A DNA stretch of 64,000 nt from an uncultured Clostridia bacterium (GCA_949286725.1 CASECZ010000006.1:3847-67846), one strand, 5' to 3'. Shown: positions 10,398 to 49,350, counted from the first letter of the stretch. The notes: generated by a model from the letters alone, not told the origin. A program made the numbers and translations.

Positions 10398-10463
10398 AAA
10401 GTACTATAAAAAACGCCGAAAAGTATAATACAATTCAGCGATATTTAGAATACTTCGCGCCCT
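10398..10463 (+). repeat. Triple 22-bp repeat element, copy A
   Basis: aaagtactataaaaaacgccga / aaagtataatacaattcagcga / tatttagaatacttcgcgccct. Confidence 0.75.
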
Positions 10464-10792
10464 TCGGTCACTTTGGTGAACATTTCCGCCGCTTCTTCGG
10501 GGTCGGGTTCGGCGTCGAGTTTGCGATAGATTTCCATATCGTAGGTTAAGTAAATCCGTTTGCCCGTCAGCGACTGTGCGTCGCGCTCGATTTCCTCTTT
10601 CAGGGCGTTTCGCTCGCTCGAAAGATAAATGGGGTAAGTGAGCACCGCGAGGACTATCGCGTCCTTGCCTTCGATGGAGCGTACCGCGGCAATCTGCGGC
10701 TTTGCGAGCGCGACGCTTTCCGCCGCAGACACCGTGCTTTGCATTTCGTATCGCGCAGAGGCGAAATTTTCTACTTGGGGAATTTCCGTCAT
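10445..10792 (-). CDS. Small sporulation protein, YhcN/YlaJ-like, without lipoprotein signal
   Basis: C-terminal pattern (AIVLAV...LKEEIE...RIYLTYDMEIYRKL) resembles the family. Sigma-F-like GTATT-N15-GGAAAAACT ends 6 nt before the ATG. Confidence 0.55.
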   Translation of the reverse strand: MTEIPQVENFASARYEMQSTVSAAESVALAKPQIAAVRSIEGKDAIVLAVLTYPIYLSSERNALKEEIERDAQSLTGKRIYLTYDMEIYRKLDAEPDPEEAAEMFTKVTEGREVF

Positions 10793-11006
10793 ATTTTCAG
10801 TTTTTCCCTTTTATGCAAAAGCAATACGCGGGCGGAGCGTTCCTGCTGCCGAGGGCTTTTCGTTTTTCTTCGGGTTTTCGTCCGAACGGAGCGGTTTTCG
10901 GATTTTCAAATATATTTCTCAAAATCTTTTATGCGCTGTTCGATTATCCGTTTCGGTCTGCAAGACGAGTACGTGGGCAGAAATTTTTTCAAATTTTTCA
11001 AATGCG

Positions 11007-11036
11007 TTGACAGCCGCACTCAAACGGTTATATTAT
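11007..11036 (+). promoter_or_regulatory. Sigma-A promoter of the riboswitch/ribU operon
   Basis: TTGACA at 11007, then TATATT (16-nt spacer) or TATTAT (18-nt spacer). Confidence 0.7.
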
Positions 11037-11040
11037 GTCA

Positions 11041-11145
11041 TTGCTTCGGGGCGAGGTGCAATTCCTCACCGGCGGTTAAAGTCCGCGAACTTGCTTTGCA
11101 AGCCGAACGGGTGAAATTCCCGTACCGACGGTACAGTCGTGGCAT
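11041..11145 (+). ncRNA. FMN riboswitch (RFN element), apparently missing its 3' J6/1-P1 strand
   Basis: CTTCGGGGCGAGGTGCAATTCCTCACCGGCGGT...AGTCCGCGA...CGGGTGAAATTCCCGTACCGACGGTACAGTC matches RFN; the usual CGGATGRRAGAAG does not follow; upstream of ribU. Confidence 0.88.
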
Positions 11146-11158
11146 TTATATGCGTTTC

Positions 11159-11196
11159 ACGCCCCGATTTGCGTATTGCGTATCGGGGCGTTTTTT
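11159..11196 (+). terminator. Riboswitch expression-platform terminator
   Basis: ACGCCCCGAT...ATCGGGGCGT plus T-run; the 5' arm is complementary to TCGGGGCG at the aptamer 5' end (antiterminator). Confidence 0.85.
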
Positions 11197-11217
11197 CGTC
11201 CCAAAAGGAGGACTTGT

Positions 11218-45947: not shown

Positions 45948-47350
45948 TAGATTTCGAAAAATTCGGGTACACCAACACTCCCGAACCCGAAAACGAAGAC
46001 AATACATACGGTCAGGAAGAGAATAACGAGGCGGATTACGCACCCGTTCCCCGCAAAGTTCCCGGCAAGGCGAATATCGTCGTGGTCGGCGTGGGCGGCG
46101 GCGGAAACAACGCCGTCAACAACATGATAAGAGCGGGTATCAAGAGCGCGAGCTTCATCGTCATGAACACCGACATGCAGGCGCTCAATATGTCCCTCGT
46201 TCCCGAAGAATGCAAAGTTCAGCTCGGCGTGGGCAAGACGGGCGGTCTCGGCGCGGGCAGCAACCCCGAAATCGGAAAACTCGCCGCCGAAGAGTCCCGC
46301 GAGGACATCAAACGCGCCCTCGAAGGCATCGACCTGCTGTTCATCACCGCGGGTATGGGCGGCGGTACCGGCACAGGTGCGGCTCCCGTCGTTGCCGAAA
46401 TCGCGAAATCCATGGGCATTCTCACCGTTGCGGTCGTCACCAAACCCTTCAATTTCGAAGGCGCGCAGCGTATGATGAACGCCGAAGCGGGCATTCGCAA
46501 CCTCAAAAACTTCGTGGACACTCTGCTGATTATCCCCAACCAGAAACTCATCGAAGTCCTCGACAACAAAATCGGGTTCAAACGTGCGTTTGAAATCGCC
46601 GACGACGTGCTCCGTCAGGGCGTGCAGGGCGTCAGCGACGTCATCGCCAACCCCGAACTCATCAATCTCGACTTCGCCGACGTCAAGACCATTCTCAAAA
46701 AGAGAGGTCTTGCCCATATGGGTATCGGCTACGGCAAAGGCGAAAAGAGAGTTATCGAAGCGGTCAGAAACGCGGTTTTCAGCCCCTTGCTCGAAACCGA
46801 CATCGAAGGCGCGACGGGTATCATCGTCAATATCAGCGGCGGTGAAGATATGTTGCTCAGCGAAGTCACCGAGGCTTGCGAAATCGTCAAACAGGTTGTC
46901 GACCCTTCCGCAAACATCATCTTCGGAACGGCGTTTGTTCCCGACAAGAAGGACATTGAAATCACCATTATCGCAACGGGATTCGTGGATAAAAACGCAG
47001 CTCCCGCGCGTTCGGTGGGTTCCGCTCCCGTCAGCACGGCAAGACCCATAGCGGCGGCGATAGCCGACGCGGCGTCCGACGCCAACGCCGACGGCGACGA
47101 AGAAACGGTTGAGTCCGTACGTTCGGAATACAACCCCAACATTTTTGCGAACCGTCCCACTTTCGGCATTCGTCAACAGGCACCTGCGGCGGAAGCACCC
47201 GCACCTCAACCTGCTCCCGCACCCGCGCCCGAGCCCGCACCTGCGCCTCAGGCACCCGCAAGCGGAATTCAGTCCAGCCGTATCGACGTCGGCAATGCAG
47301 GCCGTCAGGTTCCCGCATTCCTGCGTCATCTGCGCCGCGACAGAGACTGA
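45944..47350 (+). CDS. ftsZ: Cell division protein FtsZ
   Basis: [28 protein letters not shown]-terminal VPAFLR. Confidence 0.98.
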
Positions 47351-47429
47351 ACGGAGTCCGAATCGCTTTTTTCGGACGGCGAAATGAGCCTGTCCGAGTC
47401 GTTTACCACCGAAAAATAACCGAAATCCG

Positions 47430-47457
47430 AAAACCGTCCTTTCGAGGGCGGTTTTTT
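47430..47457 (+). terminator. Terminator after ftsZ
   Basis: AAAACCGTCCT-ttcg-AGGGCGGTTTTTT. Confidence 0.85.
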
Positions 47458-47746
47458 CGAGGGTGTTTTATCGACGGCGGTTTCGTCGTTTGAGGTTTTT
47501 TATCCTTTGTCTTTATCTGCGGTTTCTTTCGGGTTGCGTTGCGCAACAAAACAAAGGCAAATGCCTGTGTGTCTAATTGCGTCCGATTGTCTTTTGTACA
47601 TTTCGGAGTCCCTAAACATGTGCGCGCGCTTGCGCGCGCGCATTATGCGCGTCACTATGCGAGGGTGATGAACACGCGTTTGTTTGCGCTCGCATACGGG
47701 AAGAAAACGGAAAGATTTTGCGCTTTGAACTTTTTATAATGCCTTT

Positions 47747-48508
47747 GTGAGCGTTTATGTTGAAGTTGTTTTGCTCAACAACCTCGCCGTTGACGCTTTG
47801 CTCGTGACGGCGACATTGTATGCGCGTCGCAGAAAGGTGCACAGGTTTCGCGCGGCGTTGGCGGCAGCAATGGGTGCGGCGGTTGCCGTGGGCTATGCCG
47901 TGGTGCCTTTGCCTTGGCAGATAGTCATACGCGTATTGCTTGCGCCGATAATGACGCTGACCTTCGACAAATACACGTCGGTCAAGGACTTTTTGTGTTC
48001 GTTTGCCGTGTTTGCGGCGCTTACGTTTGCTCTCGGCGGAGCGGTAAGCGGTATCGGGTATCTTGTCGGCGTCGAACTCGAAGGATACCTCGTGCTCGGG
48101 TTGACCGCTTTCGGGGCGCTTGTGTTGGTTGTCGGATTGCGCTTCATCGTCAAAGCACGCGCCAAGCGTGTCAGGAAGGTGTGCGATATCGTCATCTGCA
48201 TACACGGCAAGGAGATAAGAACGCGGGCTCTGTGCGACAGCGGCAATACGCTTACGGACACGGTCAGCGGTTTGCCCGTGATAATAGCCTCGGAAAAGTT
48301 CTCGTCAGTCATAGTGGACGAAAACAGGGCAAAAAGCGAGCAAATAGAGGGGTTTGTCGAATTGAAGACCGTGAACGGCAACGCGTCTTTGCCCATTGTC
48401 GGCATCGACGAAGTCACCGTAGGCGACAAAAAGAGCAAGGCATACGCCGCGTTGTCGGAGCGCGATTTCGACGGATACGAAGTCATATTGCAGAATACGA
48501 TGTTCTAG
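47747..48508 (+). CDS. spoIIGA: Pro-sigma-E processing aspartic protease
   Basis: [10 protein letters not shown], 5 TM helices, DSGN..D motif; upstream of sigE. Confidence 0.9.
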
Positions 48509-48527
48509 ACTGCAAGCGAGGGGAGAT

Positions 48528-49241
48528 ATGAAAAACAAACTGCGAGAACTTTTGGCGCGAATATTGCGTTTTCTCGGTTTCTGCAAGCCGTGCGAAGTGG
48601 ATTACATAGCAACGGGAGAAGCCCTGCCTTCTCCGATGACGCCCGAGGAAGAGGCGGCCACCGTGGAAGAATTCATGAAGGGCAGCGAGGAAGCGCGACT
48701 GAAACTGATAGAACGCAATCTGCGGCTCGTCGTGTACATCGCAAAACGGTTTGACAATACGGGCGTCGACCTCGAAGACCTCATATCGATAGGCACGATA
48801 GGGCTTATAAAAGCGGTGGGCAGTTTCAGACCCGACAAGAACATCAAACTCGCCACGTTTGCCTCACGGTGCATAGAGAACGAAATTCTGATGTATCTGC
48901 GCAAAATCTCGCGTTCGCGCACGGAAGTGAGCCTCGACGAGCCCCTTAACGTGGACTGGGAGGGCAACGTGCTTTTGTTGAGTGACGTTCTGGGCACCGA
49001 ACCCGACGCGATATACCGCGACGTGGAGCAGTCTGCCGAAAAGGAAATGCTGCGCGAGAGTTTCTCTCGCCTTCCCGAACGCGAACGCAAAATCGTGGAG
49101 TTGCGTTTCGGTCTGGACGGCAAGGAAGAAATGACGCAGAAGGAGATTGCCGAAATGATGGGGATATCGCAGTCCTACATCTCGCGGCTGGAAAAGAAAA
49201 TCGTGTCGTCGCTCAAAAAAGAGATTGCGAAACTCGGCTGA
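48528..49241 (+). CDS. sigE: Sporulation sigma factor E (pro form)
   Basis: Basic pro-sequence, [34 protein letters not shown]. Confidence 0.96.
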
Positions 49242-49284
49242 CGGACGACTTGCAAAAGTGCGCATAAAAGCGTCGTTAAGGCGC

Positions 49285-49350
49285 AAACTATTCTAAAAAT
49301 CGGCGAAAAGTATTATGCTTTTATTTGAATTTTATAATACTTTGCTCCGA
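49285..49350 (+). repeat. Triple 22-bp repeat element, copy C
   Basis: aaactattctaaaaatcggcga / aaagtattatgcttttatttga / attttataatactttgctccga. Confidence 0.75.

Follow-up and report, generated by a model that had tools for sequence, protein, structure and literature searches.

The 64,000-nucleotide stretch of DNA analysed here (the window) comes from an uncultured Clostridia bacterium (GCA_949286725.1, CASECZ010000006.1:3847-67846) and carries three copies, named A, B and C, of a 66-bp element made of units spaced 22 bp apart. The subject of this report is that element, its further copies in the same genome and in relatives, and a membrane-anchored PadR-type protein that may bind it. The source is contig C6 (positions 3847-67846) of a 1.50-Mb genome (G000) in 8 contigs, with 97.8% completeness and 0% contamination; C6 is 171 kb long, which is 11% of the genome. 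Loci A-C are given in window coordinates, which count from C6:3847, and all other loci in contig coordinates. The elements and the genes next to them were as follows.

9899..10255, plus strand: rsfS, upstream of A (NCBIfam TIGR00090, E 5.8e-33)
10398-10463: element A, three units (left arm 10398-10419, palindromic centre 10420-10441, right arm 10442-10463)
10445..10792, minus strand: open reading frame (ORF) of 115 amino acids (aa), converging on A
31050..31691, plus strand: ysxC/engB GTPase gene, left of B (TIGR03598, E 1.1e-64)
32118-32183: element B, three units, in a gap of convergent genes
32263..32952, minus strand: metallophosphoesterase gene, converging on B (Pfam PF00149, E 4.3e-16)
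47747-48508: spoIIGA-like gene (SpoIIGA model, E 3.4e-23, below cut-off)
48528..49241, plus strand: sigE (pro-sigma-E), upstream of C (NF006158, 352.8 bits, over cut-off)
49285-49350: element C, three units, filling the sigE-sigG spacer
49413..50186, plus strand: sigG-like gene, downstream of C (best NCBIfam model SigG, E 4.4e-98, below cut-off)

An original prediction, made by a model from the sequence alone, had described three copies of three like-oriented units and proposed an unknown chromosomal protein-binding system. Its coordinates and letters for A, B and C were correct, and so were the exact 22-bp spacing of the three units at each locus, the invariant T5, A6 and T10 (9/9 units when read), the distances of 21.7 and 17.2 kb between loci, and the position of A and B in gaps between convergent genes (rsfS and the 115-aa ORF; ysxC/engB and the metallophosphoesterase gene). 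When each locus was scored with a matrix built on the other two, A, B and C reached 47.7-61.8 bits, and their reverse strands scored 59.0, 58.8 and 42.2 bits. The arms were then compared in 67 unit pairs (13 from the own genome and 54 from relatives, one strand each), which are not independent, many being orthologues. The two arms were mirror images with a correlation of 0.89, the consensus was AAAsTATTmTA-N15-TAkAATAsTTT, and the spacer had a CGSC centre flanked by A-tracts. The C element of relatives forms a full palindrome, its two arms standing on either side of a self-complementary centre. With reverse strands that also score 42-59 bits and arms that are mirror images, the element is more than three like-oriented units: it is an inverted repeat whose arms enclose a palindromic centre, and the claim that all units share one orientation was half right.

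Changes in the arms were not matched by changes on the other side: 5 of the 29 left-arm deviants at position 4 (against position 34) were compensated, and positions 9 and 29 were complementary in 17/67 pairs. Because arm changes are uncompensated, the symmetry reflects two copies of a recognition sequence and not base pairing. A structured RNA, hairpin or repeat of the repetitive extragenic palindrome type was rejected for the same reason, and Rfam at gathering thresholds gave no family at A, B or C, the sole match in the window being a flavin mononucleotide (FMN) riboswitch.

A 34-bp matrix made solely from loci A, B and C was used to scan the whole genome and three Markov-simulated genomes. 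Seven further loci scored 19.7-37.5 bits, and the three simulated genomes gave maxima of 14.8-16.6 bits, so chance matches in simulated DNA did not reach the real ones.

C6:79,903: locus J, 24.9 bits
C6:90,321: locus D, 37.1 bits
C6:98,606: locus G, 32.5 bits
C6:109,938: locus F, 37.5 bits
C6:125,197: locus I, 27.3 bits
C6:147,846, minus strand: locus H, 19.7 bits
C3:115,088: locus E, 23.6 bits

A sequence-only profile (R1), with a cut-off of E<=0.05 for the locus list, found 12 loci, among them two weaker additional ones, C6:138,744 and C2:357,822, both of which had the canonical geometry when read; C2:166,006 was left out of the counts as it matched in one arm only. The element therefore has about 12 loci and not three, and most have two units, all loci beyond A-C being two-unit in this genome. 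Ten of the 12 loci are on C6, as are 6/7 of the matrix-found loci beyond A-C (binomial P=1.4e-5); P values based on the contig are fairer than those based on the span, which are post hoc since the data set the span. Three sites lie inside coding sequence (G in a nifS-like gene, H in recG and the 138.7-kb site in a 463-aa ORF), and A, I and F touch the 3' end of a gene. D lies between spoVAD and spoVAE, F fills a 50-bp gap ahead of the next gene, and B, C, J, E and the C2 site are intergenic.

The element was conserved among relatives. R1 had matches in 15/15 genomes of the genus, with 15-30 matches each when both strands and overlapping pairs are counted; kin genomes are not independent, here and below. 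Two other species of the genus, G006 and G008, were compared site by site. In G006, orthologous sites were found for A, B, C, J, D, G, F, I and H, which means all nine C6 sites of the matrix list, together with the weak 138.7-kb site, and in G008 for A, B, C, D, G, F, I and H (8/9 on C6) as well as E on C3. One site of G008 (L049) had no counterpart in the own genome. The flanks of B and C and the upstream side of A could not be aligned in G006 and G008, and the element was retained there. The number of units varied, as D and E have two units in the own genome and three in G008. For sites in coding DNA, conservation was modestly above that of the flanks (G 0.79 vs 0.57, H 0.65 vs 0.50, F 0.59 vs 0.50, I 0.50 vs 0.47). 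In the sigE-sigG spacer, the matrix matched above 15 bits in 11/12 same-genus loci (L011-L022); L011 had a single pair only, and L022, which had no C match, stops at a contig end. In other genera and families the sigE-sigG spacer measures 49-400 bp; no element was found in the seven read, and L023 had a matrix match elsewhere. A mobile repeat like a miniature inverted-repeat transposable element was rejected, as the same places are occupied in G006 (9/9) and G008 (8/9 plus E). Orthologous conservation, sites in coding sequence, the uncompensated arm changes, the presence of ten of 12 loci on the one contig with the strand-composition switch and a candidate binding protein encoded beside one site (see below) together favour the predicted chromosomal protein-binding system, probably not one of promoter control.

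The loci on C6 run from 14 to 148 kb, which is about 65 kb on either side of a pair of genes at 77-81 kb, one for a PadR-type membrane protein and one for a recombinase.

C6:76,958-79,867 (L030:2956-5868), minus strand: 970-aa ORF, PadR-membrane protein, with site J about 35 bp upstream of the start
G000:C6:79998-81065, minus strand: tyrosine recombinase of 355 aa, XerS/XerA-like, directly upstream of the 970-aa gene

The first 112 residues of the 970-aa protein form a complete LmrR-type PadR (subfamily-2) module, with a Pfam PadR domain at aa 19-94 (E 4e-18) and sequence matches to solved PadR/LmrR proteins in the Protein Data Bank covering aa 5-112. A model of residues 1-115 (mean predicted local distance difference test, pLDDT, 82.8) showed a winged helix followed by a long C-terminal helix and matched LmrR/PadR structures with template-modelling scores of 0.70-0.81; the Foldseek matches listed for it were PadR/LmrR only, none RTP. 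Residues 116-800 contain 28-33% Glu+Asp and 13-22% Lys+Arg, and four hydrophobic segments follow at aa 839-961. At residues ~190-400 there are repeated Glu/Arg-rich heptad-like stretches (ERRVELERLEEERR and similar), like the single-alpha-helix ER/K spacers. Spacer length was highly variable among relatives, whole proteins having 353-1085 aa.

The protein was also found outside the genus. Among 60 other genomes of the same order, 20 loci matched the N-terminal part (28-60% identity by tblastn, open frames of 353-826 aa), with ~50-65% identity over the aligned 115 residues in 13 of the 20, and 14/20 also matched the membrane part. Site J wraps a -35-like TTGACT of the 970-aa protein's own promoter. 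In the 250 bp upstream of the 20 orthologues, the box [GC]TA[CT]TAT or its complement occurred 24 times (14 loci), against a shuffle mean of 6.4, and this count was reached in 0/2000 shuffles; in many cases a -35-like TTGAC directly adjoins the box. Such a palindromic box at the promoter of the regulator itself, as at PadR operators, suggests autoregulation.

The recombinase is the sole PF00589 match of the genome, and its best model was XerS (E 1.7e-50, below cut-off). An Xer-like gene (47-59% identity) was found within ~1.5 kb of the PadR-membrane gene in 9/24 loci examined. Long stretches from four other families were fetched for skew analysis, and the position of both genes relative to the switch in GC skew was as follows.

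G041: sign change between bins 470-480 and 480-490 kb; xer at 478.1-479.1 kb; PadR-membrane gene at 479.4-481.0 kb
G070: sign change between bins 120-130 and 130-140 kb; xer at 125.6-126.7 kb; PadR-membrane gene at 127.4-129.7 kb
G067: sign change between bins 240-250 and 250-260 kb; xer at 249.8-250.9 kb; PadR-membrane gene at 246.7-248.6 kb
G025: sign change between bins 70-80 and 80-90 kb; xer at 78.8-79.8 kb; PadR-membrane gene at 30.8-31.3 kb

Thus the Xer-like gene stands at a sharp GC-skew switch in 4/4 lineages with clear skew, and the PadR-membrane gene adjoins it in G041, G070 and G067 and is 48 kb away in G025. The four switches are replication termini, because each either runs from plus to minus or lies on a contig other than that of dnaA. 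The R1 sites of G041 lie at 465.5, 479.2 and 501.0 kb (-14, 0 and +21 kb of the switch) and have the canonical two-arm form with a CGCCG centre, and 8/12 R1 loci of G070 lie at 38.7-189.2 kb of the switch contig (-87 to +63 kb). In the own genome, strand bias was taken from composition skew, greedy longest ORFs being set aside as too crude. AT skew on C6 flips from +0.06 to -0.15 at ~110 kb, where the purine-skew maximum also lies, and dnaA with an origin-type skew flip is at C2:118 kb. The sites are almost entirely restricted to the terminus region, as those of MatP/matS-type systems are. The roles that the prediction had named, nucleoid occlusion or a loading site, found no support, as the distribution points to the terminus region.

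No dimer-resolution (dif) site was identified by motif search or by comparison of xer flanks: a dif-like motif, scanned with <=3 mismatches, matched 5 times on the forward and 5 times on the reverse strand (control pattern: 6 and 12), and no 9-mer was common to the xer flanks in >=4 of 6 lineages. A lexA-like gene (named by eye) follows xer in G041 and G070.

Three lineages (G073, G025 and G063) have a perfect 12-bp palindrome, CATAGTACTATG, as the box ahead of their PadR gene. We counted its dispersed matches in each genome, allowing <=1 mismatch, beside those of a control pattern.

G073: 30 matches, control 3
G025: 9 matches, control 0
G063: 9 matches, control 0

The variant at the PadR gene thus predicts the dispersed variant in these three genomes, as it should if all of these boxes are bound by one protein, encoded by the PadR gene or by a gene closely linked to it. 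In G025, 8/9 matches lie at 31-146 kb (-48 to +66 kb of the switch), four per side; one is at the PadR gene, and the nearest full box is >10 kb from xer. Seven of the eight boxes at 31.4-145.5 kb of G025:C2 (L120-L127) have a flanking ACATAAT-like motif (by eye), which stands on the terminus side in 6/7 sites having one and suggests that these composite sites are polar. In G073, with ~19 loci in all on C3, C12, C14, C19 and C29, the 12-bp palindromes are often paired 27-28 bp apart with a CAAAA...TTTTG spacer (A/T tracts), and this phasing is unlike the 22 bp of the own genus.

The neighbourhood of the elements showed several further features. By reading, terminator-like hairpins stand at 10334-10366 between rsfS and A and at 32220-32245 behind the metallophosphoesterase gene. 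The right arm (third unit) of A overlaps the stop codon of the minus-strand 115-aa ORF, whose DNA is conserved in G006 and for which a family-model search gave no match. In another genome (L116, G004:C7:24000-25600), one flank of the A site matches own C6:13.5-14.1 kb and the other own C1:318.8-319.5 kb, which reflects either a rearrangement between species beside A or a C1 end that adjoins the A region. The FMN riboswitch (RF00050, 73.6 bits) is at window 11038-11158 on the plus strand, upstream of a 388-aa ORF at 11176-12342 that appears to join a riboflavin-transporter-like membrane part to an ATPase part resembling tsaE (named by eye). At 49380-49409, outside element C, are a hairpin over the sigG ribosome-binding site, which it could sequester, and a TACATA box. 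All four sporulation-type sigma genes are on C6; the spoVAD- and spoVAE-like genes match family models, and the sigF-like gene and spoVAC were named by eye. No small acid-soluble spore protein of the alpha/beta type (PF00269) was found in the whole genome. A run of tRNA-like sequences (by eye) is at G000:C6:86300-86830 on the minus strand, upstream of the sigF region.

From sequence comparison, we propose that the elements are terminus-domain binding sites for the membrane-anchored 970-aa PadR protein, and we give this a probability of roughly 0.45. A DNA-binding protein whose gene lies in this part of the chromosome would recognise the elements specifically, and as a set they would mark the terminus region. 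The most likely binder is the 970-aa protein, with its PadR dimer module, a spacer of ~700 residues rich in Glu, Arg and Lys, and four predicted membrane-spanning segments. One dimer would sit on each unit, and two or three units two helical turns apart would allow cooperative filling of one DNA face. Helically phased dimer sites were part of the original prediction, although the element is a palindrome and not a row of three like-oriented units. Spread over ~65 kb to each side of the gene, the ~dozen loci would keep the terminus region close to the membrane, and a tether or organiser of this region is most simply suggested by the protein architecture and the layout of sites. As the neighbour of the PadR gene codes for the genome's one Xer-type recombinase, the system would probably serve to place the terminus correctly for the resolution of chromosome dimers and for segregation.

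In its widest form, the proposal would be an undescribed terminus-anchoring system of an order of Clostridia-type bacteria: a PadR dimer with a ~700-residue Glu/Arg/Lys-rich rod and a four-helix anchor would be encoded at the replication terminus with the only Xer recombinase, would bind phased palindromic sites ~50-90 kb on each side and hold the dif-flanking DNA at the membrane or septum so that dimers can be resolved, and motif and protein would have co-diverged between families. This wider form is put forward tentatively, as possible and not as probable.

Several observations weigh against the proposal. The left and right units are merely half-palindromic, their inner halves being conserved as much as the outer ones, and they are asymmetric over ~11 conserved positions, more like the arm for a monomer than a site for a dimer, so a symmetric PadR dimer fits them less well than the central unit. 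Two own loci, C3:115,088 and C2:357,822, are outside the cluster, on other contigs of the 8-contig assembly. The own composition switch (~110 kb) is 30 kb from the PadR gene, and the own GC skew is weak. Sites of the two-arm (left-right) form stand beside xer in G070, G041 and the own genome, and a degenerate box is ~250 bp upstream of xer in G025. CATAGTACTATG was not enriched in G038 (4 matches, control 2) or G057 (1 match, control 2). Outside the genus, R1 matched only 5 sampled genomes; all 5 have an orthologue of the PadR gene, but so do most of the sampled genomes, and this co-occurrence carries no weight. Finally, an additional regulatory role at some sites is likely, because the right arm resembles a sigma-A -10 hexamer plus AC and J wraps TTGACT; such regulation is plausible at J, C, D and F.

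The protein that binds the sites might instead be the adjacent Xer-like recombinase, with J or a neighbour as the dimer-resolution site and the others as non-recombining sites that organise the terminus. The recombinase has the position for this, as the sole PF00589 match, closest to XerS, at the skew switch in all four clear-skew lineages, with the sites placed symmetrically about xer and with two-arm sites or degenerate boxes <=~300 bp from xer in the own genome, G041, G070 and G025. The two-arm geometry of 33-37 bp with 11-bp arms is in the size range of the 31-bp difSL as given in the sections consulted of PMC2965235, XerS is genetically linked to its own site according to those of PMC2731167, and XerD unloads SMC at the terminus of Bacillus subtilis according to those of PMC12322038. 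The form and place of the boxes speak against it. A compact, perfect palindrome of 12 bp that lacks a central region, as is the unit of G073, G025 and G063, suits a dimeric winged helix and not two recombinase arms, and in G025 and G073 the box stands at the PadR promoter with no xer gene within ~1.5 kb. The 15-bp gap between the arms is also long for the core site of a recombinase, which was taken as 6-11 bp, and the xer flanks of six lineages had no 9-mer in common in >=4 of them. The compact palindrome in three lineages, the box at the PadR promoter without a nearby xer and the distance between full boxes and xer in G025 favour the PadR-membrane protein over the recombinase as the binder, and we regard the recombinase as unlikely. 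A PadR-type protein could, on the other hand, work as a fork trap like RTP at Ter and arrest forks that have run past the terminus. A trap would suit the layout, in which roughly a dozen multi-unit sites stand to either side of the terminus and the gene, with a site of its own, is at the terminus itself. Hints of polarity come from the terminus-side ACATAAT-like motif in 6/7 sites of G025 and from the spacers of the own genome, in which the A-rich strand is the leading strand in 7/7 asymmetric two-unit sites (by eye). But these hints are confounded with strand composition, as the A-rich strand is at the same time the one that codes locally, and the three-unit and several two-unit elements are symmetric and would also stop forks heading to the terminus. 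A fork barrier has no use for a membrane anchor, the RTP family (PF02334) had no match in the genome and the listed Foldseek matches were all PadR/LmrR; we consider a fork trap improbable.

Gene regulation was weighed in two forms. The sites could belong to an ordinary regulon of a membrane-bound PadR protein that represses or activates genes nearby (its own gene, sigG, spoVAE and the gene after miaA), clustered through the reach of the tether. J wraps the -35-like TTGACT of the own promoter and many orthologues have similar boxes right beside a TTGAC; C occupies the spacer from sigE to sigG and, in G008, where ~40 bp separate it from the sigG start codon, overlaps any sigG-proximal promoter; F fills the 50-bp gap before its gene, D lies between spoVAD and spoVAE, and the arms resemble a -10 hexamer. 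Such a regulon leaves unaccounted for the centring on the skew switch in four other lineages and the 6/12 loci without a promoter (two convergent gaps, three in coding sequence and one 3' end), all of which are conserved between species, and it too seems improbable to us. The sites could also be promoters themselves, as stacked or divergent sigma-A -10 boxes or forespore sigma-F/G -35/-10 pairs, for sigG, spoVAE and antisense transcripts. The 22-bp phasing fits the spacing of sigma-F/G promoters, C precedes sigG and D is in the spoVA operon. Isolated TAKAATAC octamers were seen at window 34073, 57512 and 57606 and at C6:1302, and those at C6:1302, window 34073 and window 57606 stand 17-18 bp after TTGACA as the -10 region of three sigma-A-like promoters on C6; because of these three, the sigma-A -10 region of this organism often reads TAKAAT followed by AC. 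The right arm of the element resembles this -10 region. Stacked promoters, which the prediction had offered as an alternative, are nevertheless disfavoured by the other observations. The two arms are conserved as mirror images, no -35 match was found 17 bp upstream in the 67-pair alignment, sites lie in coding sequence and convergent gaps with 6/12 loci lacking a downstream gene start, the region upstream of spoVAC has no such motif, and the terminus-region restriction is left unaccounted for. In 7/7 distant relatives read, the TACATA box 8-20 nt upstream of the sigG ribosome-binding site is kept, and their spacers (two of just 49 and 79 bp) have no element; the conserved sigG promoter features therefore lie outside the element, and the TACATA box may be the real sigG -10 element. 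RNA data for window 31000-50900 (four runs) consisted of assembled contigs only, without starts or strand; one contig spans B and one is inside sigG. We consider promoters very improbable.

Terminus-region marker proteins are known from enterobacteria (MatP), Bacillus (RTP, XerD sites) and Caulobacter. To our knowledge, none is known for anaerobic spore formers, and full-text literature searches turned up nothing on a terminus protein that is of PadR type or anchored in the membrane. Whether a specific protein bridges sister termini is left open, in the sections consulted, by a 2020 study on sporulation in Bacillus (PMC7515245). In the wider form of the proposal, the 970-aa type of protein could, in spore formers, supply the bridge proposed for terminus cohesion. 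The question becomes testable with a defined motif, ~12 loci per genome and a named candidate protein. This candidate is of unusual architecture and is conserved across many families, and the motif may serve as a terminus marker in fragmented metagenome assemblies.

Several known systems resemble the one proposed here in part. PadR/LmrR repressors are soluble proteins of ~110-180 aa that control one or few promoters, with the operator ATGT-N8-ACAT. The 970-aa protein shares with them the full PadR subfamily-2 N-terminal module and the box at its own promoter, but the motif is not ATGT-N8-ACAT, and we know of no PadR/LmrR member with a membrane anchor or a terminus-wide set of sites. RacA of sporulating Bacillus subtilis likewise links a DNA-binding domain through a long helical spacer to an anchor at the envelope, and binds ~25 dispersed palindromic ram sites in one chromosomal region to tether it. 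RacA, however, marks the origin region, has another fold and reaches the pole via DivIVA, whereas the sites here are at the terminus and the candidate has a predicted transmembrane anchor. RTP of B. subtilis is a small winged-helix dimer encoded at the terminus beside one of its sites, with ~nine composite sites of adjacent dimer positions around the terminus, and Ter is a polar site. The system here is alike in having its gene and one of its sites at the terminus, with multi-unit sites around it, but its elements are largely symmetric, and the candidate protein is membrane-anchored by sequence with a fold that matches PadR/LmrR.

As for the Xer systems, a single Xer-like gene at the skew switch is shared with them. 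The difference is the compact palindrome without a central region in three lineages and a box that tracks the PadR gene when the two genes separate. By the sections consulted of the respective papers, XerS/difSL is a single-recombinase system with its gene linked to its site at the terminus (PMC2731167; PMC2965235), and XerD is an Xer protein that acts at several terminus sites without recombination (PMC12322038).

A further comparison is with MatP/matS. In Escherichia coli, matS is a short palindrome repeated a dozen or more times in the terminus region only, often inside genes, and a MatP dimer links this Ter region, a domain of ~800 kb, to the cell envelope or divisome. Here, too, about a dozen palindromic sites are nearly all confined to the terminus region and some are inside genes. 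The domain is ~130 kb instead of ~800 kb, the sites have two or three phased units, and the candidate combines a winged helix of the PadR type with a membrane anchor of its own; no MatP homologue (PF06303) was matched in the 97.8%-complete genome. The system would be a functional analogue of MatP/matS that is built from unrelated parts.

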